64,000 bases of DNA from Escherichia phage DT571/2. The notes under the pieces were generated by a model. That model had not been told where the DNA came from. It searched no databases and saw nothing but the letters and a program-made list of their open reading frames with translations. Where the stretch lies: sequence record NC_047749.1; one strand, written 5' to 3'. Every line of letters starts with the position of its first letter. Within the stretch, counting starts at the first letter, position 1. A program made the translations under genes and the position numbers. Positions 25,939-41,975 of the stretch are shown here, piece by piece.

Positions 25939-26033
25939 TGGAGGTAGGTAAGGGGATCGAACCCTTACACCGTATCACTACGATCAACCGATTTCAAGTC
26001 GGAGTCCAGCGCCAGCCGTTGGATTGACCTACC
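25939..26033 (-). tRNA. tRNA-Ser (anticodon UGA), class II
   Basis: hand fold: perfect acceptor and T-arm, anticodon loop CTTGAAA, long variable arm. Confidence 0.7.
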
Positions 26034-26772: not shown

Positions 26773-26836
26773 TGGTCAGTGCGGCAGGACTCGAACCTGC
26801 GACCTGAAGCATCCAAGGCTCCCACGCTACGCACTG
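26773..26836 (-). tRNA. atypical 64-nt tRNA-like element (no room for a D-arm)
   Basis: CCA, perfect 7-bp acceptor CAGTGCG/CGCACTG and perfect T-arm GCAGG/TTCGAGT/CCTGC, only 29 nt between them. Confidence 0.4.
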
Positions 26837-27217: not shown

Positions 27218-27291
27218 TGGCGCGACCGATGGGATTTGAACCCACATTCCCCGTGACAGGGGAGTACCATTACCAAGCCAGCCCCTGTCGC
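27218..27291 (-). tRNA. tRNA-Asp (anticodon GUC)
   Basis: hand fold: CCA, T-arm, anticodon loop CTGTCAC. Confidence 0.7.
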
Positions 27292-27588: not shown

Positions 27589-27666
27589 TGGCGGGCCGTG
27601 TAGGATTCGAACCACCAACCCCGAAGGGCACGGATTTACAGACCGCTGCAATAGCCATTCTGCCAA
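27589..27666 (-). tRNA. tRNA-like element with Tyr-like anticodon loop CTGTAAA (degenerate)
   Basis: CCA, weak T-stem, variable-arm hairpin CCC-TTCG-GGG, no acceptor pairing found. Confidence 0.35.
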
Positions 27667-27750
27667 CGATGTATATTTAAAAGTATTCAAATACTTGTTT
27701 AAACACTTTTAAATATGTTTCCAACTTAGATAACTATTATATCTAGGTTT

Positions 27751-30212: not shown

Positions 30213-30287
30213 TGGCCGAGGTGACAGGATTCGAACCTGCATAAAGGAATTTAGAAGACTCCTGCCTCTCCCTTAGACTACACCCCG
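30213..30287 (-). tRNA. tRNA-Arg (anticodon UCU)
   Basis: hand fold: CCA, acceptor with one G-U, T-arm, anticodon arm GGAGT-CTTCTAA-ATTCC. Confidence 0.65.
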
Positions 30288-30788
30288 TTTAAGTATTTTT
30301 AAGAACTCTCGTAAAAACTCTTAAAAATACAGACGATACCGGGAGAGTCATAAGTCTCACTCATTAAGTATTTCAAGACAAAATACAGTAACGTCTATTA
30401 TTTTCCAGTTTAAGTCAAGGTGACTTAGTGGTTATGCCCTGCGGTATACTGAGGACTCGGTTAGGCTAGGGTCATGACTCCCCGCTTTTTGCTGCTACTC
30501 AACAGGAATTATCGCGAATTACCTGTGCTATTGTGCACCATTAGTGGCATCTCTCATGCCAGCATTTCCCACTTTGTGGATAGTTTGAAAAACTACTCCG
30601 ATATGGAGGGAGAACTTCACTATCCTAGAATACCTTCTAAAGTTCTTCTTTAGCCTGGACATAGTTAAATCGTAATAAAACTATTCAGCAGACTGGTTGG
30701 TTAGCCTGGAACCAACTACCGCGTGGTTTAGGCAGTGCGCAACTAACCTCGGAAGCTTTTACGTTAAAAGCACCAGTTATCCAGTTCT

Positions 30789-30860
30789 TACCGATCGTAG
30801 GATTCGAACCTACATCTTCCACCAGTTACGGCTTGATAATACCGTTTATACTAGATCGGC
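30789..30860 (-). tRNA. tRNA, CCA not encoded, anticodon undetermined
   Basis: perfect T-arm GTAGG/TTCGAAT/CCTAC and 7-bp acceptor with one G-U. Confidence 0.5.
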
Positions 30861-30935
30861 AGTGTTACTACATAAGTGATTTCCACACCCCACTATCAAT
30901 AAATTAGGGAAGAATTACTCTCTAATTTATGAATA

Positions 30936-30964
30936 TATTATACAGAATATATAAGCATTTAGCA
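30936..30964 (-). promoter_or_regulatory. T5-early-type promoter (leads into tRNA at 30789)
   Basis: RC of TTGCTA-17-TATAAT. Confidence 0.55.
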
Positions 30965-30973
30965 AATGAATTT

Positions 30974-31408
30974 TTAGAAAAATTCACTAGCAATCAGAGC
31001 GGCTGTTTTACCATCATAACGCCCTGGAAACTCTGCCTTAACAGTTTTCATTAAGAGAGCTTTGGTAATACCTGGGTTTAGCTTAACCAATTCTGCAAAA
31101 TATTTACGAATTTCAGTTTCAGTCAGTTGACTTGGCTGATACTCTTGCAGCATGAAATAAAGCAGTTGCTCGTAGTCTACATCAGTAGGAACTTTCGTAC
31201 CAACTTTAATAGCACGCTGCTTTGCAGTTTCTAGAGCTTTAATCTGGGCTTTCAGATAAGCTACGAACTCGGTTCGAGTAACAACGTCTTTATTAATGCG
31301 TTGCAAGTCACCAATCATAGTCTGGAGATTGATTGCCCGCTCTTTGTCACCGTGGATACGTGCTAGACTAAGCAGTCCACGAAGGGTCATTAGAATATTT
31401 TCACCCAT
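30974..31408 (-). CDS. hypothetical protein
   Basis: 144-aa ORF. Confidence 0.55.
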   Translation of the reverse strand: MGENILMTLRGLLSLARIHGDKERAINLQTMIGDLQRINKDVVTRTEFVAYLKAQIKALETAKQRAIKVGTKVPTDVDYEQLLYFMLQEYQPSQLTETEIRKYFAELVKLNPGITKALLMKTVKAEFPGRYDGKTAALIASEFF

Positions 31409-31578
31409 TATTTCATCCCCAATGCTTGGTTGAAAGATTGTTCTGTCATAACTGCTGAGACTTTGGCGAAATCAAACTTTTTAGGGTTCGTAGTGATCTC
31501 AGCAACGTTGGAAGTTTTAACAGTTTTCGTAGTACGAATACCGCGAGTGTTAACACCAATAATTACAACTGATTTCAT
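31408..31578 (-). CDS. small hypothetical protein (56 aa, not in ORF track)
   Basis: manual translation MKSVVIIGVNTRGIRTT...; GAGAGG SD; TAATG overlap with downstream gene. Confidence 0.45.
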   Translation of the reverse strand: MKSVVIIGVNTRGIRTTKTVKTSNVAEITTNPKKFDFAKVSAVMTEQSFNQALGMK

Positions 31579-31609
31579 ATTTCGCTTCCTCTCATTAATT
31601 TATGAAAGT

Positions 31610-31638
31610 ATTATACAGAAGTTTAAGTATTTAAGCAA
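31610..31638 (-). promoter_or_regulatory. T5-early-type promoter
   Basis: RC of TTGCTT-17-TATAAT. Confidence 0.55.
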
Positions 31639-31646
31639 ATAAATTT

Positions 31647-32096
31647 TTAAGTTTTAGTGACAGCAGGCTTATAAAATGTATGTCCCTTAATCTTGGTTGT
31701 TTTCTTAAACTTCTTTGTCCAGTATGGTTTATCTTTACCACTATGGAAGTATAAGGCCCCATGTGTAGGATCTTGTGGTAAATCAACGTAGTATATCACT
31801 CTAGCTAAATTCTTGGCGGTTTGCCAAGCCTCATCGGTTTTATCAACTTTTGGTCTCTTAGATACCCAAGAGAACTGGTTAGACTGATATACTACTTTAC
31901 AGTAGGAATCTGGGAATTTACCGGAGTTTACACGGTTTTTAGTAACGTGTGCAATCGCCGTCATTCCCTTTATGCCCTCACCACGACTTTCGAAATAGAT
32001 ATTTTTAGCAATGCAATCTATTTCTTTTGCATCGTGCGATGCTTGACTACTAAAGCTGAAGGTAAGGGCAGCTACTAAAAGCAAAGCTGCCTTCAT
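31647..32096 (-). CDS. secreted cell-wall hydrolase (SleB/CwlJ-like)
   Basis: 149 aa; signal peptide; NIYFESRGE and VTKNR motifs. Confidence 0.6.
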   Translation of the reverse strand: MKAALLLVAALTFSFSSQASHDAKEIDCIAKNIYFESRGEGIKGMTAIAHVTKNRVNSGKFPDSYCKVVYQSNQFSWVSKRPKVDKTDEAWQTAKNLARVIYYVDLPQDPTHGALYFHSGKDKPYWTKKFKKTTKIKGHTFYKPAVTKT

Positions 32097-32102
32097 TCTT
32101 TT

Positions 32103-32420
32103 TTACTCCTGCCAATCGTATTCAATACGATTGGGGTTTTCTTTGTATCCCAAGTCAAGCAAATCATTACGCATAGTTTGCTTAGCTACGGGATTCGAGG
32201 TTACTAGTACCACTTTCTTTGGTCTCTGCCCAAATTCTAAGAGTAAACGAAGAATTTGATAACCTTCCATACCATCTACAGCCAAATCGTTGTCGAAATA
32301 AACAAAATGGCCAGTGGTATCAGTCTTATTCAGAAACTCAACAGCGGCTTCTGGGGTTCGAATGATAATGTCCATTCCGTGAAGATTACGCACATCATCA
32401 ATCAAAATATGAAAAGTCAT
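32103..32420 (-). CDS. hypothetical protein
   Basis: 105-aa ORF. Confidence 0.55.
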   Translation of the reverse strand: MTFHILIDDVRNLHGMDIIIRTPEAAVEFLNKTDTTGHFVYFDNDLAVDGMEGYQILRLLLEFGQRPKKVVLVTSNPVAKQTMRNDLLDLGYKENPNRIEYDWQE

Positions 32421-32450
32421 AATAGCCTCGTTTCATCAATTTAAAAATAT

Positions 32451-32479
32451 ATTATACAGAGAACTTAATAAATTAGCAA
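32451..32479 (-). promoter_or_regulatory. T5-early-type promoter
   Basis: RC of TTGCTA-17-TATAAT. Confidence 0.55.
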
Positions 32480-32862
32480 ATACATTTTTAAATTGTGAAA
32501 CTAGTAAACCGATAAACAGCCTAGGGGCGCCACAGGCCATATCTTACGAGCCATGTACCTTTGATCTAGGGTTTGAATCATCAACGAATACTTTGCATCT
32601 TTTAGCTTTAGAAGTTTAGAAGTTTGAGTTCTTTAAACTTTTCAGCTTTCATACTTAAATGTTGATCTTTGAAGTTGTGTCGGTAATATCAACGACTCTT
32701 TGTTTTTACGTGTCAGATTAAATGTCCGATGTAATAAACATAATCTCCAATAGATTATACTTTATAGTATGGTCAGCGGTCTTATTTAACCTCGTATTTC
32801 AACCGCTGCTGCGAGGTAAGATGCTTGGGCTTTCGTCTACCGATTTACTAGCTTTTAAATTA

Positions 32863-33501
32863 TTACTCTACTTCAATGAAAGTAGAGGCGTTAGACTCGG
32901 ACAGAACAAAGTCAACATTAGTTGCAAAGTCCTGATATTCCTCGTCATGTTGTTTAATCAGCTTCTCCAGTTCCAGCGGATCAATCAAGAATGGGGTATT
33001 CTTGAGTTCCAACAGGTTGAGCTGCATTTTAACTTCATCTTCGGAAGTTTTCTTATCGCGGGTAGCCATGCTATCCTGCAAACGCTCATATTTAGCATCA
33101 AACTGTGCTTTCTGCGTATTAAACTTAACCGTAGCGGCATGGAACTGCTTACGCATATTAGCCAGCAACTGAGCTTTAAGCTCCATAGAACGCTTAGCTT
33201 CAATTGCTTCTGCAACAGTCATTTTACGAGAGCCAATCTCAACGATTGTTTCCGCATTGCTCTTAATCAATGCTGCTTTGATACGATCACGCTGGGACAT
33301 CATATCCAGCAGAGACTGGAAATCTGTCTTAATACGATTAGACAGATCTTCTACTTCGATTGCAGCGCCAACTACAACCTTATTTTTATCCTTACCTTCA
33401 CCAACAGCGATCAGAAGCTGTTGTTCAGTAGCTTTACGGATTTTAGCTTCCAGAGATTTGATGGTTGCCAGAGCACGAGTTTTAGAGATACGAGCGGGCA
33501 T
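32863..33501 (-). CDS. hypothetical coiled-coil protein
   Basis: 212-aa hydrophilic ORF on the strand shared with neighbours. Confidence 0.6.
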   Translation of the reverse strand: MPARISKTRALATIKSLEAKIRKATEQQLLIAVGEGKDKNKVVVGAAIEVEDLSNRIKTDFQSLLDMMSQRDRIKAALIKSNAETIVEIGSRKMTVAEAIEAKRSMELKAQLLANMRKQFHAATVKFNTQKAQFDAKYERLQDSMATRDKKTSEDEVKMQLNLLELKNTPFLIDPLELEKLIKQHDEEYQDFATNVDFVLSESNASTFIEVE

Positions 33502-33553
33502 TGTTTATTCCTTACATGAAGTTTAAGATTTGAATTTGTTTAAAGTTGGTCTA

Positions 33554-33736
33554 TTACAGACCCATTGCCAGTAAGGTACGCAGAACAGTATCTTTACTGT
33601 TATCAATTTTAGGATTAACACGATTTAGCAGATCAAAGATTTTCTGGACACCTGATTGACGTTCAGCCATACGACGGATACCCAGATTACGAGTAGCTTT
33701 CTTACCATTTTTACGGACATTTTTAGATACTGGCAT
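33554..33736 (-). CDS. small basic protein
   Basis: 60-aa ORF rich in Lys/Arg. Confidence 0.5.
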   Translation of the reverse strand: MPVSKNVRKNGKKATRNLGIRRMAERQSGVQKIFDLLNRVNPKIDNSKDTVLRTLLAMGL

Positions 33737-33763
33737 ATTTGTTTTCCTTTTGTTGTTTTCTCA

Positions 33764-33815
33764 AATTTATGAATATATTATACAGAATTTATGAATATAT
33801 TATACAGAATTTTGG
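33764..33815. repeat. 26-bp tandem duplication (ATTTATGAATATATTATACAGAATTT x2)
   Basis: read directly; duplicates the -10/leader part of the promoter. Confidence 0.85.
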
Positions 33816-33827
33816 AGCCGGAAGCAA
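33799..33827 (-). promoter_or_regulatory. T5-early-type promoter
   Basis: RC of TTGCTT-17-TATAAT. Confidence 0.55.
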
Positions 33828-33828
33828 A

Positions 33829-34530
33829 TCAAATTTTCATTTTTTCGATCATAGCTGCAACACAATAGCTCTCAACTAAGGCATCGAATGCTGGGTCGTG
33901 CTTAACCGGATATATCCCGTAACGAATGGTGTCCATCTTCTCCATCTTGGCTTTTGCCCAGCTAATACCTTCGGTCTCTAGAGCCTTATAACTGTATCCA
34001 GCTTGCATCCAGAGATTACGAAGAGATCGAACATTACCCAAATTCCAGAATTTCCACGGAACTATTTCTTCATTGGTTCCAGCATGGAAAGTGTTTGCAG
34101 AGTAGATAGTCATATCAAACTCTGGGCCATTGCCGTAATATAAAGCATTTTCGCCTAGAGCCAACTCCATAATATTTTGGGTCATAGAGAAGGCAGCATG
34201 GTTAGAGCCGAGCTTATTAGTACAGTGATGTTTACCATCTCGAAAAGCAATCAGCTTTGGATTATGCTCATTCATAGCTTCCATAATGTGGAGAGCAGAC
34301 GGACTATTTTTAGCTTGATCCATCCAGAATGCTAGAGTAGATGCCGTAACTTTAGCTCCAGAATTAAGCTGGTCTTGCACATCCAAAGTAACAAACACTA
34401 GATCAGGGTCTTTATCAATTCCATGCATAGCCACAAAAGCGAAGGAAGGCATTGCGATATGAGTAGTACCACAATCTCCTGGAGTTCCTAGAGATTCAAT
34501 ATCTAACATACCAAATGGTTTTACTTTCAT
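33829..34530 (-). CDS. putative DnaQ-like 3'-5' exonuclease
   Basis: 233 aa; N-terminal Exo I-like motif MLDIESLG. Confidence 0.5.
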   Translation of the reverse strand: MKVKPFGMLDIESLGTPGDCGTTHIAMPSFAFVAMHGIDKDPDLVFVTLDVQDQLNSGAKVTASTLAFWMDQAKNSPSALHIMEAMNEHNPKLIAFRDGKHHCTNKLGSNHAAFSMTQNIMELALGENALYYGNGPEFDMTIYSANTFHAGTNEEIVPWKFWNLGNVRSLRNLWMQAGYSYKALETEGISWAKAKMEKMDTIRYGIYPVKHDPAFDALVESYCVAAMIEKMKI

Positions 34531-34558
34531 AACTTATCCTTTATTGTGTAGAAAACTA

Positions 34559-34795
34559 TTAAAGAGCTGTCTCTTTAATAGACTCCCACTTCTTGGGGTC
34601 TTTAAAACCAGGAAGCATATCTTCACTAACATCCCAGTTTTCTTCCGTAGAAAAGTCTGGCCATTCATTCCAGTTACCTTCCAGCTCTTCATACCAGGTA
34701 TCCATTACCTCGCGATTAGAAAGTCGTGTATAGTCTCTAGCGGACTTATGAGTGCTAGCACGGTTAAAATCATTCTTTGCTACAAAATTACGCAT
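34559..34795 (-). CDS. hypothetical protein
   Basis: 78-aa ORF. Confidence 0.5.
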   Translation of the reverse strand: MRNFVAKNDFNRASTHKSARDYTRLSNREVMDTWYEELEGNWNEWPDFSTEENWDVSEDMLPGFKDPKKWESIKETAL

Positions 34796-34837
34796 AGTTT
34801 CTCCAAAAATATGAGGGGCTTTCGCCCCTCTTATCTA

Positions 34838-35353
34838 TTACTTCGCTTTACGTTTACGAGCTGGTTTAGCAGATTTACGAGCAGAATCACCCGTAAATTT
34901 AATACCCACACCATAGCACAGAGCACGAACGTTATCTTTGCTATATTCTACGCCGAAGATATTTGGCTTAACAGAACCAAACTGGCCACGAGTATCACGC
35001 AGTACATCTGCCGTTGGTTTACGCTTCTGGTTAACTGCTTTTTCGTAATCTTTCATGGCCATGCCATTACGAGGGAACAATTCAGCTCCAGCATTGAAAC
35101 TCAGTGTTACTGGAACAGATTTGTGACCGTAACCCTGTACATAGGTTACGAGGCGGACTACAGAACGAGTAGCATTCTTAGCCTTCGGCTTTTGACGAAT
35201 CGGAGCCGGACGATTCAGTGCCTGTGCAGCTTGAGCATCAGTAGGATGCTTGCGCAGGTGGCGTTCCAGACGAGCTTTGCGGTTAGCCTCAGTCTGTGGG
35301 AAAGTTTTAACTGCCGGAGCTGCTTGAGTTTTTGCGTTTTTCTGCTTAGCCAT
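34838..35353 (-). CDS. basic hypothetical protein
   Basis: 171 aa, Lys/Arg-rich termini. Confidence 0.55.
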   Translation of the reverse strand: MAKQKNAKTQAAPAVKTFPQTEANRKARLERHLRKHPTDAQAAQALNRPAPIRQKPKAKNATRSVVRLVTYVQGYGHKSVPVTLSFNAGAELFPRNGMAMKDYEKAVNQKRKPTADVLRDTRGQFGSVKPNIFGVEYSKDNVRALCYGVGIKFTGDSARKSAKPARKRKAK

Positions 35354-35391
35354 TATTTGTTTTCCTTTTTGTTTATCAATTTATGAAGTAT

Positions 35392-35420
35392 ATTATACGA
35401 GAATTTGAAGCGTTCAGCAA
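35392..35420 (-). promoter_or_regulatory. T5-early-type promoter
   Basis: RC of TTGCTG-17-TATAAT. Confidence 0.5.
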
Positions 35421-35436
35421 ATGAATTTTTTAAAAA

Positions 35437-35715
35437 TTATCTGCCAACCATCTTAGCTTGTTCGGCATCTGAGACATATTGATACGCTCCTTTATTATAC
35501 GCTGGAGCAGTACACATTTTCTTACGCTCAATCTCTTCTTGAGCTTTTCTTTCGCGTTCAGCTAATTCTTCATCCAGATAAACTAAACGTTGTTCTGGAG
35601 GAGGTGGAAGACGTGTTTCTGGCTCACCAATATTAGCCTTTCTTATTTGACGAGGTGATTGTGCACGTTTTCTCAACGGTTTAAATCCTAATGAATTTGA
35701 GTTATAAATTCGCAT
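35437..35715 (-). CDS. hypothetical protein
   Basis: 92-aa ORF. Confidence 0.5.
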   Translation of the reverse strand: MRIYNSNSLGFKPLRKRAQSPRQIRKANIGEPETRLPPPPEQRLVYLDEELAERERKAQEEIERKKMCTAPAYNKGAYQYVSDAEQAKMVGR

Positions 35716-35742
35716 AAAGCCCTCCTCACTTTCAATACGAAT

Positions 35743-35771
35743 ATTATACTAAATTAGAGGGCTTTAAGCAA
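35743..35771 (-). promoter_or_regulatory. T5-early-type promoter
   Basis: RC of TTGCTT-17-TATAAT. Confidence 0.55.
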
Positions 35772-35791
35772 CTGAATTTTTAAATTATTTA

Positions 35792-36280
35792 TTACATCTC
35801 CGCAAGTTCTTGCTCAGTAATAACTGTATTACACAGTGCATCTACAGCTTCATTACCACTAATACCAGAATGTCCTTTAACCTTAATAAAGGTAGGATTA
35901 GTATTGTGAAAGTTGATATACTGCTGTGTTAATTTAAATGCTTCCTGCCAAAGTTCTAGATTAAGAGGAACCTCACCATCTGCTTTCTTCCAGCCTTTCC
36001 TTTGCCAAGAAAACATCCAGCTTTCCATGCCATTTTTGCAATAAGCAGAGTCAGTATAGATAACAATTGGTCTATTATCCTTTTTAACGGACCAACGTAG
36101 AGCTTCTACAATAGCTGTGAGTTCCATCTCATTATTTGTAGTTTTAGGACTATAGCCAGATTTAGAGCCTAGACGATCGTCATTATCATCATAGACAATA
36201 AAACCCCAAGCACCGGGACCTGGGTTGGACTTACAAGCACCATCTGTGTAAATGTGGAAAACCGACATTATTTGCTCCAA
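35792..36280 (-). CDS. rnh: ribonuclease H
   Basis: 162 aa; RNase HI motifs YTDGAC, TNNEMELTA, YTDS, GHSG. Confidence 0.85.
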   Translation of the reverse strand: MEQIMSVFHIYTDGACKSNPGPGAWGFIVYDDNDDRLGSKSGYSPKTTNNEMELTAIVEALRWSVKKDNRPIVIYTDSAYCKNGMESWMFSWQRKGWKKADGEVPLNLELWQEAFKLTQQYINFHNTNPTFIKVKGHSGISGNEAVDALCNTVITEQELAEM

Positions 36281-36328
36281 TTAATAGTTACCCAATAGCC
36301 TTCACGCTAATTACGATCAAGTAAAATA

Positions 36329-36358
36329 TATTATATTTGAAATTATACCTAATAAGCA
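36329..36358 (-). promoter_or_regulatory. T5-early-type promoter within a 20-bp inverted repeat
   Basis: RC of TTGCTT-18-TATAAT. Confidence 0.45.
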
Positions 36359-36378
36359 AGTATAATTTCAAATATAAT

Positions 36379-36395
36379 AGCCCCGAAGGGCTATT
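36379..36395 (-). terminator. hairpin after thyA (AGCCC-CGAA-GGGCT)
   Basis: GC stem with tetraloop, AT-rich flank. Confidence 0.4.
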
Positions 36396-36399
36396 TAAG

Positions 36400-37239
36400 T
36401 TAAGAGGACATTTTAGCTTTAAGAGCTGGATGAGGATCGTACCCCTCTAAGTGGAATGACCAGGCTGCTGTATTATTTTCTAATAAGTCGTAAAGATCTA
36501 CAAATTCTGGCATTACTAGAGTTGGTAAAGAACGAGGTTTACGTTTTACCTGTTCTTCTACCTGTTCCATGTGGTCATTATAGATATGAGTATCACCGCC
36601 ACTAAAGATAAGATAACGAGGTTTTAATCCTGTCAGTTTTGCTAATATATGCGTTAATAAAGCATAACTAGCGATATTGAAAGGTAAACCGAGGAAACAA
36701 TCCACAGAGCGTTGTGTCCATTTAAGATCTAAGTACCCATCATTACTTACATAGCACTGGAAGCCGTAGTGACAGGGTGGTAATGCCATTTTATCAAGTT
36801 CAGCTACGTTCCATGCAGAAACTAGATGTCTGCGGCCATGTGGATTATTCTTGAGTCCTTCAATAAGTTCTAGAATCTGATCTCGCCCACCAAAGTTACG
36901 CCACTGTTTACCATATACTGGTCCTAGATTACCATTATCATATCCCATACTTATAGCTTGGTCTTCATAATTTGGAGTCCAGATGGTCCACTGTCCTTCG
37001 TCACGACCAAATGTGAATACACGTAGATCATGAAGATTTGTGGAACCAGACAAGAACCATAAAAGTTCTCCAACTACCGATTTCCAAGCTAGACGTTTAG
37101 TAGTTACAGCCGGGAACCCGTCACGTAGATCGAACTTAGCATAGGAATCAAAAATTGAAACTGTGCCTGTTCCTGTACGGTCATTACGGGGTTCACCTAG
37201 TAAAATTACATCTGTCAAAATTTTTAAGTATTGTTGCAT
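36400..37239 (-). CDS. thyA: thymidylate synthase
   Basis: 279 aa; active-site LPPCH motif and other ThyA blocks. Confidence 0.9.
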   Translation of the reverse strand: MQQYLKILTDVILLGEPRNDRTGTGTVSIFDSYAKFDLRDGFPAVTTKRLAWKSVVGELLWFLSGSTNLHDLRVFTFGRDEGQWTIWTPNYEDQAISMGYDNGNLGPVYGKQWRNFGGRDQILELIEGLKNNPHGRRHLVSAWNVAELDKMALPPCHYGFQCYVSNDGYLDLKWTQRSVDCFLGLPFNIASYALLTHILAKLTGLKPRYLIFSGGDTHIYNDHMEQVEEQVKRKPRSLPTLVMPEFVDLYDLLENNTAAWSFHLEGYDPHPALKAKMSS

Positions 37240-37772
37240 TAATAAGTAACCAATTCCTGTACAAATCGCAGGCTGTTATCACTGTTTGCGCCAGTTGCGT
37301 AAACTAATCGAGTAGATTCATAGTTGTAATCTAGAATCGTATTATCCAGATGTACATCTGCCTCTAGCTTCTGTTCGCTAAAGATTGTAGATACAAAAGC
37401 ACTTTCTATATGCCCATGTTGGTACATCTCTAGAAGAAGATTAGCTCCGCCTAGAACTACTGTTTGCTGATCTTTTAAGAACGTGGGCAATGTATCCCCA
37501 ATCTTAGAAATTGGGGTGTAAATATCATGTGTAATATCGTCTGGCAATGGACGATCAGCACGAATAAATAGGTCAGAAGTTCCAATCATACGTTCCCTAA
37601 CGGCGTATGGAAGAGCTAAATAAGTACCAGCACCAATAATAATATTATTAGGATTTAGTACATCTAATTGTGAATAAAAAGCACCTAGTTCTTCTTTAAA
37701 AGAACCCCAGGGAAGCTTACCTCGGAGGCCGAACTCCCCATTCGGCCCAACTGCATACATTGCTGTAATCAC
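37239..37772 (-). CDS. frd: dihydrofolate reductase
   Basis: 177 aa; DHFR-like N-terminus; adjacent to thyA as in T5. Confidence 0.75.
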   Translation of the reverse strand: MITAMYAVGPNGEFGLRGKLPWGSFKEELGAFYSQLDVLNPNNIIIGAGTYLALPYAVRERMIGTSDLFIRADRPLPDDITHDIYTPISKIGDTLPTFLKDQQTVVLGGANLLLEMYQHGHIESAFVSTIFSEQKLEADVHLDNTILDYNYESTRLVYATGANSDNSLRFVQELVTY

Positions 37773-38914
37773 AGGAAATCTCCAAATTCATTGCCCAGAT
37801 CTTTCAGAGTATCAGTAGAAGTCTCAGTTACCTGACCTACACGATAGGCTGCACCAATCTGGATTTCTTGTGGAGCAGGCTGTAGAGAAGTAGTATCCAA
37901 CCAGTTCATGATCCACGGAATAGGGTTTTTAGTGATTACTGGTAAGTGACTAGGCCATTCTACGCCAATGTGCATAAACGCGTTGCGTCCTACAAAGTAC
38001 AGGTACTCTTCTAACAGTTCTGCATTCAAACCAATCAGGCTACGACCGTTGAAAATGAAATGACCCCATTCAATTTCAGTTTTCAGAGTTTTCAGGAGCT
38101 GTGCTGGTGCTTTAGCCACTGCTTCATCTACCAGATCTTTGTCAAACTGCTGGAACATAATCTGGATGATTGTTTTAGACATCTGAGTATGTAAGGCTTC
38201 ATCTTTAGCAATCAATTGCAGATTTTTAGCAATACCTTGCAGAATATCGTTCTCTGCTAACGCAAAGGTACATGCAAAGGATGCGTAAAACTGCATTGCT
38301 TCCAGACCGTAGATTGCAAAATAAGCATCTAACAGTTTAGCCTGAGTTTCACGCTTAACTTCAGGGAACTCAGTTTCTGGATACGTATTGTCACCACGAT
38401 GATCACGTACTGCGATGAAATACTGACCTAACTGGTACAGTTCATCAAACAGTTCAACAGAATCTGCGATACGTGCGAATGCTTCTTGGTTTTTGGTTAC
38501 AGAATCAATAAATTCTGCTGGATCAGTCAGCACATTACGAATAATATTACTATATGCACGGCTATGCAGATCTTCGAAGTAGCTCCACTGCTTGAGCATA
38601 CCTTCCAATTCTGGACGGCTTACCAGCGGCATAATAGCTGCTTCAGGCGCTCGACTGATAAAGGAATCAGTTTGAGTCTGCCATGCTAAGTTCAGGAGTG
38701 TGATTTCCTGAATTTCACGTGGGAGATTGGGCCATTGTTTCTTATCGGCTTCTAAACTGATTTCTGTCTCAGTCCAAAATTGAGAGCGAGCTAATAACGC
38801 CAGCCTTTCCAGCTCTGGATGGGCTACTCGTACATAATCTGCGATACCTAGAGAATCACCGAGAAATAGATCTTTATTGGTATGATCCCAGTTTAAGTTA
38901 AGTAAAGTTGTCAT
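37769..38914 (-). CDS. nrdB: ribonucleotide reductase class Ia beta subunit
   Basis: 381 aa; di-iron ligand blocks including EALHT. Confidence 0.9.
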   Translation of the reverse strand: MTTLLNLNWDHTNKDLFLGDSLGIADYVRVAHPELERLALLARSQFWTETEISLEADKKQWPNLPREIQEITLLNLAWQTQTDSFISRAPEAAIMPLVSRPELEGMLKQWSYFEDLHSRAYSNIIRNVLTDPAEFIDSVTKNQEAFARIADSVELFDELYQLGQYFIAVRDHRGDNTYPETEFPEVKRETQAKLLDAYFAIYGLEAMQFYASFACTFALAENDILQGIAKNLQLIAKDEALHTQMSKTIIQIMFQQFDKDLVDEAVAKAPAQLLKTLKTEIEWGHFIFNGRSLIGLNAELLEEYLYFVGRNAFMHIGVEWPSHLPVITKNPIPWIMNWLDTTSLQPAPQEIQIGAAYRVGQVTETSTDTLKDLGNEFGDFL

Positions 38915-39539: not shown

Positions 39540-41975
39540 TTAAATAGTACAACCGCCTGATGCACAACCGGCTGCTTCTTCACCAGCCCCACCACCATTT
39601 GCAGTGTTGAAGTTAGCATAATACCAAGTTTTCCACCCGTATTTAACAGCAGTCATGAAATCACGAACTACTACTGGGCCAGGAATAATTTCATTCTCAA
39701 ACTTGGTGTAGTCATAGTACATATTCGTACTGATAGACTGACTGAAGAATTTCTGCATAGTTGCTACCCATTTGATCCATTCAATACGATCCACATCGTA
39801 AGCCAGTTTATAGCTCATGAGAGTATCCCAATCAGTTGCACCTGGAGCGATTGCAATTACTTTATTCACTGCACTACCCTTAATAGATACAATCTTACGG
39901 GGTGGTTCAATAGAGTTAGTAACCCCTAACAGAACGGAAGAACTTTCTCCTGGCATCTGAGCAGTCAGAACAGAGTTACGCATACCGTATTTCAGAATAT
40001 CTGCACGCAGAGATTCCCAATCCATTTCTAGACCTACTGATACCAGCTCATCAACAGTTTTCTTGTACGTGTCGATTACCAGAGTTCCTTTGGATGGTTT
40101 AGTACGATTAAACCATTCACATGCACCTTGCTCTTTGGCTAGACGTACAGAGGCTTTATGCAGGAAGTAAGACAGTTTTTCAGCTTCACGATGAATCCAG
40201 TTACGTGCTTCAACGCCTTCATAAGCCAAACCTTCCGCCGCCATTGCACCTGCTGCGTTCATCAGACCAATACCAACGTTACGACGTTTCTTAGCTGTAT
40301 ATTCCATAGTTGGGAACGGATAATCCTGAATTTCAATAATTGTATCAACGAATTTCAGGAGGATGTAGCAAGTTTTTTCCCACTCAGCCAGAGATTCCAT
40401 GCGTCCAAGTACAACACCACCTAAGTTACACAGAGATACTTCACCAATATCCTCCGGCTTCATTTGATCAAGTTGTTCTTTTGTTTTATACAGCTCTGTA
40501 ATGTGGTGGAATGGGCGTGTAGGCTGATTAATTTCAAGGCATAAATTACTCATACGGATTGGATCAAGGAAGTTACCGTGACGATTAGATTCCCCGATGT
40601 GGTGCGCATACATACGTCCTGTTTCCATTCTGATACGTAGCCAAGTATCTAGGATTTCTTTTGCAGAGACTTTAGGAGCTGCTGGAACTGTTTTTCCTTC
40701 ATGGTCGATCTTTGTAAGAGATGCCACACGTTTCTCCGCTGCCACATAGATTTCTTCAAATTTAGCCTCGTCATCACTATAAAACGCTTCATGAACTTCT
40801 GGAGCATAGAAGTATGACATTAGCGTAATATCTTCATTTTTCAGATAACGTTTTAACAAAAGATTATTAAAGTTCAGAGAATAATCCATCTTATCGATTT
40901 TATTCTCGTCTGTAGCACGTTGCTGCTTAACCTGCATCAATTGGATGATTTCAGGGTCAAAGTAAGGATAGGATACAGTAGCAGAACCACCACGAGTTTG
41001 CTGAGTATTAGCCTTTACTGATCGGTCAATGTGTCGATAATATGGCAGTTTTCCGGAATGCGGGAATGCCCCGTTTCGCACCGGATCAGCAATTGATCGG
41101 CTTTCAAGATGATACCCGATTCCCGCTCTGGCTGCAACCATTTTGAAGACGATGTGTTCGGCTGTGTCGATTGAATCCAATGTGTCAGTGGAATCAACGA
41201 GGCAACAACTAGCAAATCCACGGTCACTAGAGCGCAAGCCAACCAATGGCGGCGTAGGAACGTTGATCTTGTGGAGCGACATTGCATTGTAGAGATCGAT
41301 TGCATCTAGAATTGTCCAATTAGGTTGAGATAACATCGCCATTGCCATACCCATATAGGCAAATTGCGGGGTTTCGTAAATTTCGCCAGTTGCGATATTA
41401 CGACGGGAATACTTATCAAAGAATTGTTTCAGTCCTCCACTAGTGAAAAGACGGTCGCGATCATGGTCGATAACCTGATTCAGAGCTTCAAATTGCTCAT
41501 CGGTAATCCATGCACTCATGTCTTCCCATGCACCTACACTAACCATATGATCGTGGAAGAAGCGTAGGGAAGGTGGTTCGAAGGAATCATAAAGACGTTT
41601 ACGCATCTGCGCAAGACGTAATTCCTTTGCGGGCACGTCGTATGCTGGGTTATCTTTGATAAGACTTTCAGCAGCTTTAATTAACGCATCCATCAGAGTA
41701 TCGGAATCTACAACCCCTTTAGGTAGAGTTTTTTGAGCAGCCATAGTAATGGCTGACCAACTTACATCAACTGTTTTGCAACCATACTCTGCCCAACCAT
41801 TGAGTTTTTCAGGAGCAAAGTCTTCTACAGTACCGTCACGTTTAATTACTTTTTCAATGCGATGGCTCATTTGGTTTTCCTTTTTATGGTTATCAGGATT
41901 TAGGAAATAGTTTACTTTATTCTCAGTCATTTGGCAAATAAAATTTTCTGATAGAAAAGGCCCGAGTATTTTCAT
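39540..41975 (-). CDS. nrdA: ribonucleotide reductase class Ia alpha subunit (start may be an internal Met)
   Basis: 811 aa; ATP-cone VIKRDGT, catalytic Cys blocks, C-terminal CxxC tail. Confidence 0.9.
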   Translation of the reverse strand: MKILGPFLSENFICQMTENKVNYFLNPDNHKKENQMSHRIEKVIKRDGTVEDFAPEKLNGWAEYGCKTVDVSWSAITMAAQKTLPKGVVDSDTLMDALIKAAESLIKDNPAYDVPAKELRLAQMRKRLYDSFEPPSLRFFHDHMVSVGAWEDMSAWITDEQFEALNQVIDHDRDRLFTSGGLKQFFDKYSRRNIATGEIYETPQFAYMGMAMAMLSQPNWTILDAIDLYNAMSLHKINVPTPPLVGLRSSDRGFASCCLVDSTDTLDSIDTAEHIVFKMVAARAGIGYHLESRSIADPVRNGAFPHSGKLPYYRHIDRSVKANTQQTRGGSATVSYPYFDPEIIQLMQVKQQRATDENKIDKMDYSLNFNNLLLKRYLKNEDITLMSYFYAPEVHEAFYSDDEAKFEEIYVAAEKRVASLTKIDHEGKTVPAAPKVSAKEILDTWLRIRMETGRMYAHHIGESNRHGNFLDPIRMSNLCLEINQPTRPFHHITELYKTKEQLDQMKPEDIGEVSLCNLGGVVLGRMESLAEWEKTCYILLKFVDTIIEIQDYPFPTMEYTAKKRRNVGIGLMNAAGAMAAEGLAYEGVEARNWIHREAEKLSYFLHKASVRLAKEQGACEWFNRTKPSKGTLVIDTYKKTVDELVSVGLEMDWESLRADILKYGMRNSVLTAQMPGESSSVLLGVTNSIEPPRKIVSIKGSAVNKVIAIAPGATDWDTLMSYKLAYDVDRIEWIKWVATMQKFFSQSISTNMYYDYTKFENEIIPGPVVVRDFMTAVKYGWKTWYYANFNTANGGGAGEEAAGCASGGCTI

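Follow-up and report, generated by a model that had tools for sequence, protein, structure and literature searches.

The transfer RNA (tRNA) cluster of phage T4 encodes stable RNAs that are not tRNAs (species 1 and 2, rnaC, rnaD), which are co-transcribed with the tRNAs and matured by the tRNA-processing machinery. Species 1 and 2 are non-essential and about 120 to 140 nucleotides (nt) long, as opposed to 0.6 to 1.25 kilobases (kb) and many domains in rnaX, the RNA considered here. ROOL and GOLLD are large phage RNAs that lie near tRNA islands, with tRNAs sometimes situated inside GOLLD, and they assemble into cages made of RNA alone, held together by kissing loops and A-minor contacts (PMC12286853). 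In the 64,000-nt stretch of Escherichia phage DT571/2 that we analyzed (NC_047749.1; hereafter, the window), positions 30298 to 30788 of the minus strand are the body of rnaX, a feature already annotated in Escherichia phage DT57C and in T5.

As with ROOL and GOLLD, rnaX is phage encoded, at least 600 nt long, and located beside a tRNA island, and it has a tRNA module inside. It also shares with them a conserved part combined with a variable, domain-swapped part, as well as the lack of a known partner protein (PMC12286853). It differs in occurring in phages of Enterobacterales rather than in Firmicutes, Actinobacteria, and environmental sources. Nanocage oligomers are the hallmark of ROOL and GOLLD. 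A T-loop/D-loop elbow module within a much longer RNA is also present in the mascRNA of MALAT1, in the tRNA-like structures (TLS) of plant viruses, and in the tRNA-like domain of transfer-messenger RNA (tmRNA), and embedded modules of this kind could attract RNase P or other factors that bind tRNA. Unlike these, the module of rnaX has paired flanks, lacks both a CCA or aminoacylatable end and the G3.U70 pair, is internal near the 5' end rather than terminal, and is replaced in some lineages.

We propose, with a probability of roughly 0.6, that rnaX is a conserved, non-coding, multi-domain structured RNA gene of the minus strand that serves as an accessory folded RNA of the tRNA island. The existence of rnaX was already known, and its architecture appears to be undescribed. 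Seemingly new are a tRNA-like branch carried on a covarying helix, an invariant self-complementary loop, a lost 5' domain, and a 0.6- to 1.25-kb family of Demerecviridae RNAs absent from Rfam. A search of the open-access literature returned no paper on rnaX or a T5 stable RNA, nor on its secondary structure, tRNA-like branch, or distribution in the family, and it goes unmentioned in recent work on the tRNA region of T5. Rad of T5-like phages is a protein (ORF75) and a different entity from rnaX.

Identity and position of rnaX

The phage of the window is T5-like, and a 901-nt query around the stretch is 99.6% identical to DT57C (438 phage records matched by megablast). All genes in this part of the window are on the minus strand. 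The DT57C record (KM979354, 30992-31627) contains a misc_RNA named rnaX, described as a "stable RNA with unknown functions," that is equivalent to window positions 30288-30923, and the two copies are 99.5% identical over 643 nt. In the T5 record (AY543070), rnaX spans 719 nt (40848-41566), with "promoter P 16-17" before it and tRNA-Arg starting at the next base; it aligns to the window copy in two blocks of 92.4% and 99.3% identity. The window copy has the same position and strand, being 3' of the T5.081 homolog and of P16-17 and directly 5' of tRNA-Arg(UCU), and positions 30298-30788 represent the 3' four-fifths of an RNA of ~640 nt (about 30288-30930). The tRNA-Arg(UCU) gene comes after rnaX in all genera examined, sometimes with open reading frames (ORFs) inserted between them. 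The unit and its borders are as follows, and positions on the RNA strand are given below as q = 30931 - w, where w is the window position.

30288..30930, minus strand: rnaX transcript unit, its full extent inferred from identity to the rnaX of DT57C and T5, from the promoter just upstream, and from tRNA-Arg at the next base
30937..30965, minus strand: sigma-70-type promoter TTGCTA-17-TATAAT (-35, 17-nt spacer, -10), a 10/12 match, corresponding to the T5 early promoter "P 16-17"
30213..30287, minus strand: tRNA-Arg(UCU), the downstream neighbor (ARAGORN; Rfam tRNA model, 49.3 bits), whose 5' end sets the annotated 3' end of rnaX

A motif of the form TTGCT...(G)ATATAAT or TGTATAAT follows the T5.081 homolog in every relative examined, including the Proteus, Providencia, Pectobacterium, and Enterobacter phages. 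An earlier note, prepared from the letters of this DNA, had reported no early promoter consensus in the stretch. This holds inside the gap, where a consensus scan returned 5 promoter-like sites against 8.2 expected and 2 terminator-like sites against 1.8 expected, none above chance, but it misses the promoter at 30965-30937 (minus strand) just upstream.

ARAGORN calls tRNA-Arg(UCU) at 30213-30287 and a "tRNA-Ser(ACU)" at 30788-30861, both on the minus strand, leaving 500 nt between them. The earlier note had viewed this interval as a 490-base-pair (bp) ORF-free gap between two tRNAs and as a candidate small stable RNA. The gap is real and contains no conserved ORF, but the upstream "tRNA" is a branch of rnaX, which extends beyond the gap to include this unit and a further 70-nt 5' segment. 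Similarly, a stable RNA accords with the annotation of DT57C and T5 and with the covariation described below, but at ~640 nt, and 0.7 to 1.25 kb in relatives, it is not small. The note had called for a covariance search. Rfam covariance models yielded no family for the body, and the alignments of relatives revealed covarying helices (helix C, the palindromic-loop hairpin, and h5).

Covarying helices in the minus-strand transcript

Four features carry the evidence for a conserved RNA structure.

30867..30880, minus strand: 5' strand of helix C, AUCACUUAUGUAGU (q51-64), inside the conserved leader GUGGGGUGU..AACACU; pairs with 30772-30785
30772..30785, minus strand: 3' strand of helix C, ACUGGAUAACUGGU (q146-159), with the conserved GAUAAC motif; supported by covariation
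30463..30487, minus strand: palindromic-loop hairpin with a 4-bp outer stem, a 4-bp inner stem, and an invariant 8-nt loop, AGUCAUGA, at 30472-30479
30436..30456, minus strand: hairpin h5, between the conserved CCGAG and AUAACCAC

Helix C joins the leader to the segment that immediately follows the tRNA-like unit on its 3' side and consists of 12 bp with two conserved 1x1 mismatches (C.C and G.G). Among 17 sequences, 100% of its positions are paired, and six pairs are changed on both sides. A set of 14 sequences adds phages of Proteus (Novosibvirus), Providencia (Priunavirus), Pectobacterium (Hongcheonvirus), Enterobacter, and Klebsiella, and helix C is represented in Tequinta-, Epseptima-, Sugarland-, Hongcheon-, Novosib-, and Priunavirus. 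In this set, 99.4% of positions are paired, as opposed to 28 to 42% in controls in which the 3' partner was slid; both-side changes occur at 7 of the 12 pairs, and the covariation score was reached in none of 500 shuffles. The Pectobacterium phage has UCAC/GUGU in place of the otherwise invariant UUAU/AUAA core.

In the model-fitted alignment A4 (31 distinct sequences), 94.4% of cells are paired and 11 of the 18 pairs are changed on both sides, a result matched by 0 of 500 shuffles, and slid controls are 16 to 45% paired. The both-side changes involve all four outer pairs and two of the four inner pairs of the palindromic-loop hairpin, and all five pairs of h5, which is 95.9% paired. The same compensations (AGGU/ACCU, AGGC/GCCU, AGACU/AGUCU, and GUGAU/GUCAC) are evident in a plain MAFFT alignment. 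A covariance model of this region (R1, q423-524) recovers all Markadamsvirinae and Sugarlandvirus copies (43 to 119 bits) and nothing convincing elsewhere. It misses the copies of the Pectobacterium and Proteus phages, in which homology of the palindromic-loop hairpin rests on the motif, and its match to the Providencia phage is weak (18 bits, E = 0.09).

The supported helices contain many G.U pairs (for example, UG at A1 columns 18-125 and 27-116, GU at 46-62), as does the terminal hairpin of rnaX. Because these would be A.C mismatches on the other strand, the structure belongs to the minus-strand transcript. Taken together, the alignments show that rnaX folds into a large multi-domain structure on this transcript, and the covariation indicates selection on that structure. 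With 523 phage records and compensatory base changes, the conservation of the stretch is far from chance.

The loop AGUCAUGA contains the self-complementary sequence UCAUGA, which is the only hint of oligomerization. A UGCAU loop in the Providencia phage was considered as a compensating palindrome and rejected: it reflects a deletion of the inner stem-loop and therefore lends no support to a kissing-loop interaction. The tract that the earlier note had placed near 30480 is present as CCCCGCTTTTT at 30480-30490 of the plus strand. It is the antisense of AAAAAGCGGGG (q441-451), the 5' strand of the palindromic-loop hairpin, and the A run is not conserved, being AGUAGGCUGGG in Epseptimavirus and AGUAGG or UAUGG in relatives. 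Its interpretation as an intrinsic terminator was rejected, since it lies on the antisense strand, no terminator was predicted there by the scan, and the run is not conserved.

A tRNA-like branch on helix C

Helix C encloses the unit that ARAGORN calls as a tRNA.

30789..30860, minus strand: tRNA-like domain, a branch on helix C (ARAGORN "tRNA-Ser(ACU)"), with conserved acceptor, D, and T arms and a variable anticodon arm

The Rfam tRNA model scores 30788-30861 at 39 bits and leaves the anticodon arm unaligned. The D and T arms are canonical, and most homologs have U.U and G.A mismatches in the acceptor and a 6-nt "anticodon" loop. The isotype label varies with the record or ARAGORN run among Ser(ACU), SeC(UCA), Pro, and OTHER. 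In some copies from Klebsiella phages and metagenomes (L008, L030, L032, L044, and L046), the anticodon loop has become an extra hairpin. In INF11, SH9, and the Proteus and Providencia phages, an unrelated stem-closed insert replaces the whole tRNA-like domain and helix C is kept; the inserts enclosed by helix C are 30 to 90 nt long. With an incomplete cloverleaf, paired flanks, a shifting isotype, and a module that is replaced in some phages, 30788-30861 does not behave as a full tRNA. Because its flanks pair in the covarying 12-bp helix C, we assign the "tRNA-Ser" to rnaX as a domain, and the comparisons indicate that it is a structural branch and not an independent decoding tRNA.

Distribution and modular variation

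The 643-nt rnaX is recognizable by blastn in 523 phage records, at 95 to 99% identity in Tequintavirus and 73 to 88% in Epseptimavirus, with partial matches in Klebsiella Sugarlandvirus. None of the 5,426 complete E. coli genomes searched contains a match, and a conserved 22-mer searched against 185,579 species genomes (GTDB) occurs in one place only, evidently by chance; mimicry of a host RNA and a prophage origin were both rejected on these grounds. The 22-mer also matches 17 metagenome contigs, about ten of which are T5-like. Pattern scans of IMG/VR and metagenomes recovered mostly the same T5-like phages and chance matches, adding some diversity and no new host group. These searches show rnaX to be conserved throughout Demerecviridae at a fixed place, between the T5.081 gene with its early-type promoter and tRNA-Arg(UCU).

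By inference, the RNA measures ~640 nt in the window and 720 nt in T5; HASG4 has a version of 785 nt, and several Epseptimaviruses have versions of 820 to 1010 nt. The copy of Enterobacter phage KKP_3711 is 885 nt long, that of Pectobacterium phage DU_PP_V 985 nt, that of SB13 1204 nt, and that of a Klebsiella phage 1250 nt, for an overall range of 0.7 to 1.25 kb in relatives. In the alignments, invariant islands are separated by strongly differing segments that retain the potential to form hairpins, and whole segments look as if they had been swapped as modules. The islands comprise GUGGGGUGU..AACACU, GAUAACU, CUAAACCACG, AAAGUGGGAAA, GGAGUCAUGACC, CCGAG with AUAACCAC, AGUCACCYUGACU-UAAACUGGARGAUA, and YUUAAU. 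The copies in T5 and L042 have an insertion of about 65 to 85 nt (64 to 83 nt in T5) that duplicates the segment AGUCACCUUGACU..AACUGGAA (AGUCACCUUGACU-UAAACUGGAA; L003 4986-5051 in T5), and model R1 has a second weak match in this duplicated segment. The order of modules is also not fixed: in the Proteus (L054 5467-6245) and Providencia (L055 5770-6470) phages, the helix-C module is at the 3' end, in an order unlike that of T5, and in the Proteus phage it is preceded by the palindromic-loop hairpin. A separate T-arm-like piece, CUAGGUUCGAGUCCUAG, is present further upstream in these two phages.

A domain at the 5' end contributes to the size differences.

30899..30930, minus strand: P1 hairpin at the 5' end, AUAAAUUAGAGAG...CCCUAAUUUAU, the closing stem that T5 and DT57C retain from an otherwise deleted 5' domain

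In HASG4, EscoHU1, S132, SB13, and Klebsiella and Enterobacter phages, the strands of P1 pair (-13 to -17 kcal/mol) around a domain of 150 to 400 nt, and P1 is a simple hairpin in the window and T5. The additional domain (L002 [HASG4], L006, L010, L012, L007, and L057) lies between the promoter and the leader and includes a covarying hairpin, CAGCR-GGCNNAYUA-YGCUG, along with the motifs GAAUAGAGUCGGUGAGUU and GUAAACUCU; the hairpin and motifs are also recognizable in the Proteus, Providencia, and Pectobacterium phages. The 5' domain is thus present in most relatives and has been lost from T5 and DT57C. In the Epseptimaviruses SE24, SB10, and IrmaTschudi, an ORF of ~480 nt occupies its place right after the rnaX promoter (L005, about 215-700; L016, 216-695; L017, 1022-1504), and the annotation of IrmaTschudi designates it a homing endonuclease.

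Alternative explanations

The earlier note had also suggested a processing spacer, and rnaX could be a passive part of a polycistronic pre-tRNA transcript, functionless in itself, that is removed and degraded during tRNA maturation. Its place is within the tRNA cluster and on the same strand as the tRNAs, abutting tRNA-Arg, and it falls inside the annotated deletion of the T5 st0 mutant, where it is absent from the 6 kb around the junction. A spacer is not expected, however, to keep invariant islands of 8 to 13 nt and covarying helices across six genera whose sequences are otherwise 50 to 80% related, and the upstream "tRNA" is itself a structural branch of rnaX. We regard the spacer as highly unlikely.

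More doubtful still is a known type of catalytic RNA (group I-like, RNase P-like, or tmRNA-like) that processes phage tRNAs or rescues ribosomes, although the large size, a possible pseudoknot in the 3' domain, the tRNA-like module, and the occasional association with a homing-endonuclease gene would suit one. Rfam 15 was scanned with the 8-kb tRNA region, with the isolated 671 nt at E <= 10, and with 17 relatives, including the longest versions, at E <= 1. No family matched the body of rnaX in the window or in the 17 relatives, the only hits being tRNAs and sub-threshold chance matches, and there was no match to Intron_gpI, RNase P, tmRNA, or ribozyme models (E <= 10 in the region, E <= 1 in the longer relatives). 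For a group I intron, Intron_gpI has no match at E <= 10 and no interrupted gene is present to provide an exon context; for RNase P RNA, Rfam has no match in the window or relatives. For tmRNA, neither ARAGORN nor Rfam finds one in the region; the acceptor reads G1, C2, C3, no CCA end is encoded, and G3.U70 is absent. The sequence GGAAGAUAUUGUCUG in Epseptimavirus copies, which we take to be similar to J8/7-P7 of the T4 td intron, has no model support in the Rfam scan.

A graveyard of tRNA pseudogenes, decayed through turnover of the tRNA cluster, has a very slim chance of being correct. One tRNA-like unit is present and the tRNA content of T5-like phages varies, but the Rfam tRNA model (RF00005) finds nothing in 30288-30787 at E <= 10 and nothing in the bodies of 16 relatives, in agreement with the earlier note, which had recognized no tRNA in the gap. 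Moreover, the supported helices are not cloverleaves, and their covariation reflects purifying selection rather than decay. An array of tRNAs was rejected because the tRNA model has no match in the rnaX body.

The chance is equally slim that the stretch acts as DNA, for example, as an origin of replication, a signal for nicking or packaging, or an array of protein-binding sites. It is A/T rich with a long palindromic hairpin, and site-specific nicks are annotated in T5 ~1 kb away. The many G.U pairs, however, can form on just one of the two strands, a promoter points into the region, and the closing of helix C around inserts of 30 to 90 nt fits the folding of RNA and not duplex DNA.

Least likely of all is a coding role for rnaX, with one or more small proteins as annotated in many GenBank records: ORFs of 44 to 60 amino acids (aa) exist on both strands and automated pipelines call coding sequences (CDSs) from them, but no ORF of at least 30 aa is conserved in position or length among 33 non-redundant homologs, even between near-identical phages, and indels in the alignment are frequent and not multiples of three, with substitutions that are paired across helices. 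The ORFs that overlap the gap are all short (25 to 60 aa). Records of relatives (for example, GEC_vB_N3/N5/N7, Boggle_ER46, and SB13) have up to five short "hypothetical protein" CDSs across rnaX, and because none of these ORFs is conserved, the CDS calls, like the odd tRNA calls, are probably annotation artifacts. Spurious protein and tRNA calls (Ser-ACU, SeC-UCA, and Pro) affect many records of T5-like phages, and a single non-coding RNA feature should replace them.

Proposed role

The T5.081 homolog (30974-31408, minus strand, 144 aa) is directly upstream of the rnaX promoter, and this adjacency is kept even in the Proteus, Providencia, and Enterobacter phages. The protein belongs to PHROG 1460, "tRNA amidotransferase" (E = 1e-41). 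Domains of the YqeY/GatB type bind tRNA, and we conjecture from the conserved adjacency that T5.081 may be a partner of the tRNA-like branch. Various records mislabel the T5.081 homolog, for example, as a "recombination-related exonuclease."

In the T5 st0 deletion mutant, the annotated junction is inside the T5.081 homolog, and the rnaX sequence was not found within 6 kb around the junction, the rest of the st0 genome not having been searched. Because the annotated junction implies the loss of rnaX, the RNA would be dispensable in the laboratory. T5 tolerates spontaneous deletions of ~8 kb in its tRNA region, although they sensitize the phage to retrons and PARIS, and the region behaves as a non-essential anti-defense region (10.1101/2023.03.15.532788; PMC11555353; PMC11464382). 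By its published coordinates, the T5Mos deletion (30661-38625) stops short of rnaX.

As an accessory folded RNA of the tRNA island, rnaX would be transcribed early from P16-17 together with tRNA-Arg. RNase P, by cutting where that tRNA begins, would release rnaX, which would explain why the annotated 3' end of rnaX abuts the tRNA. It would then accumulate as a stable RNA and might act in folded form, neither as a message nor as a spacer, as an accessory factor of the phage tRNA island that is needed in some hosts or conditions only. It might work through the tRNA-like elbow, docking RNase P, another tRNA-binding factor, or the adjacent YqeY-like protein; alternatively or in addition, the conserved loops might mediate RNA-RNA contacts, by analogy to the higher-order assemblies that ROOL and GOLLD build.

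A more tentative possibility, to which we give rather less than even odds, is that rnaX is the founding member of a previously undescribed class of giant, ornate RNAs of phages (0.6 to 1.25 kb) that is confined to Demerecviridae and functionally analogous to GOLLD and ROOL. Such RNAs would have swappable domains around a conserved core and an embedded tRNA-shaped module, and they would perhaps self-assemble via the invariant loop or bind tRNA-binding factors, in tRNA biology or counter-defense. If so, rnaX would be the first ornate RNA of such a class in a genetically tractable phage of E. coli. The hosts of ROOL and GOLLD are hard to work with, and rnaX sits in a similar place in T5, a classic model phage of E. 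coli, where it would be freely deletable and mutable if the annotated st0 deletion covers it. It adjoins a region shown to counter the retron and PARIS defenses, and the covariation-backed map offers helix C, the tRNA-like branch, the AGUCAUGA loop, and the lost 5' domain as targets.

Several points weigh against rnaX as a functional folded RNA of this kind. Some lineages do without the tRNA-like branch and the 5' domain, and Providencia phage PSTCR5 does without the GUCAUGAC loop, so that none of the proposed interaction sites is universal. Neither the window copy nor 16 relatives, including the 1.2-kb versions, match the Rfam models of ROOL and GOLLD, and rnaX has no similarity to any other Rfam family. 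Folded as a single sequence, rnaX scores barely better than shuffles (z = -1.85), which is uninformative; the pair counts of A4, an alignment fitted to the model, lean towards that structure; and the structures proposed for the central region (q177-355) and the 3' junction are read from alignments only. The "stable RNA" label derives from a GenBank note, for which no experimental basis was found in the open-access literature. Finally, the assignment of T5.081 to YqeY is weak, with a Pfam score of 20.7 bits against a cutoff of 27 and a full-length match to PDB 1ng6 (YqeY) at E = 0.16.

Other structural features and the surrounding tRNA cluster

The remaining features of rnaX, listed from 5' to 3' on the RNA, are as follows.

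30755..30771, minus strand: hairpin a, GCUUUUAACGUAAAAGC, with 5 pairs, 100% paired, 2 of them changed on both sides
30576..30754, minus strand: central region (q177-355), with several putative local hairpins from alignments and RNAalifold; the alignment is only partly reliable here
30565..30575, minus strand: nearly invariant island AAAGUGGGAAA (q356-366), from alignments
30545..30561, minus strand: hairpin UGGCAU-GAGAG-AUGCCA (RNAalifold, q370-375/381-386), with a compensatory UCACG..CGUGA in T5
30413..30435, minus strand: island AUAACCACUA and the invariant hairpin AGUCA-CCU-UGACU, in which the sole change is C-G to U.G
30331..30412, minus strand: 3' domain, UAAACUGGAAAAUA followed by a putative three-way junction (closing stem, hairpin, YUUAAU, hairpin), the layout being read from alignments
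30293..30330, minus strand: terminal hairpin, A/U rich and 17 bp long, closed by a UACG loop and separated by 5 nt from the downstream tRNA-Arg (RNAalifold)

The invariant island of the central region, CUAAACCACG, is at 30722-30731, and the region occurs in differing versions among the relatives, as if modules had been swapped. The three-way junction (q519-600) has three sequence versions in the relatives and one layout, with its closing helix predicted by RNAalifold. In the terminal hairpin, 549 cells are paired and 12 are mismatched (98% paired), with several pair types (RNAalifold); Enterobacter phage KKP_3711 has a compensatory version, and the copy in the Pectobacterium phage is 92.9% identical. 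RNAalifold also predicts a candidate long-range helix between UAGUGG (30890-30895, q36-41) and CCACUA (30426-30431, q500-505), with 190 paired and 8 mismatched cells, which would close the whole core. This helix is plausible and ambiguous, since both GUGG and CCAC are present at two places and the sequence of the Enterobacter phage favors the other partner.

Elsewhere in the tRNA cluster, additional "stable RNAs" (RNA1, RNA2, RNA2H, RNA3, RNAI, and RNAIV) are listed in the records of T5 and DT57C. Four minus-strand sites in the window match Rfam models without an ARAGORN call: 26776-26836 (tRNA model, 44.6 bits); 25943-26033 (tRNA-Sec model, 38.3 bits), perhaps a long-arm tRNA; 27597-27668 (25.1 bits); and 27221-27291 (27.9 bits), which is annotated as tRNA-Asp in DT57C.

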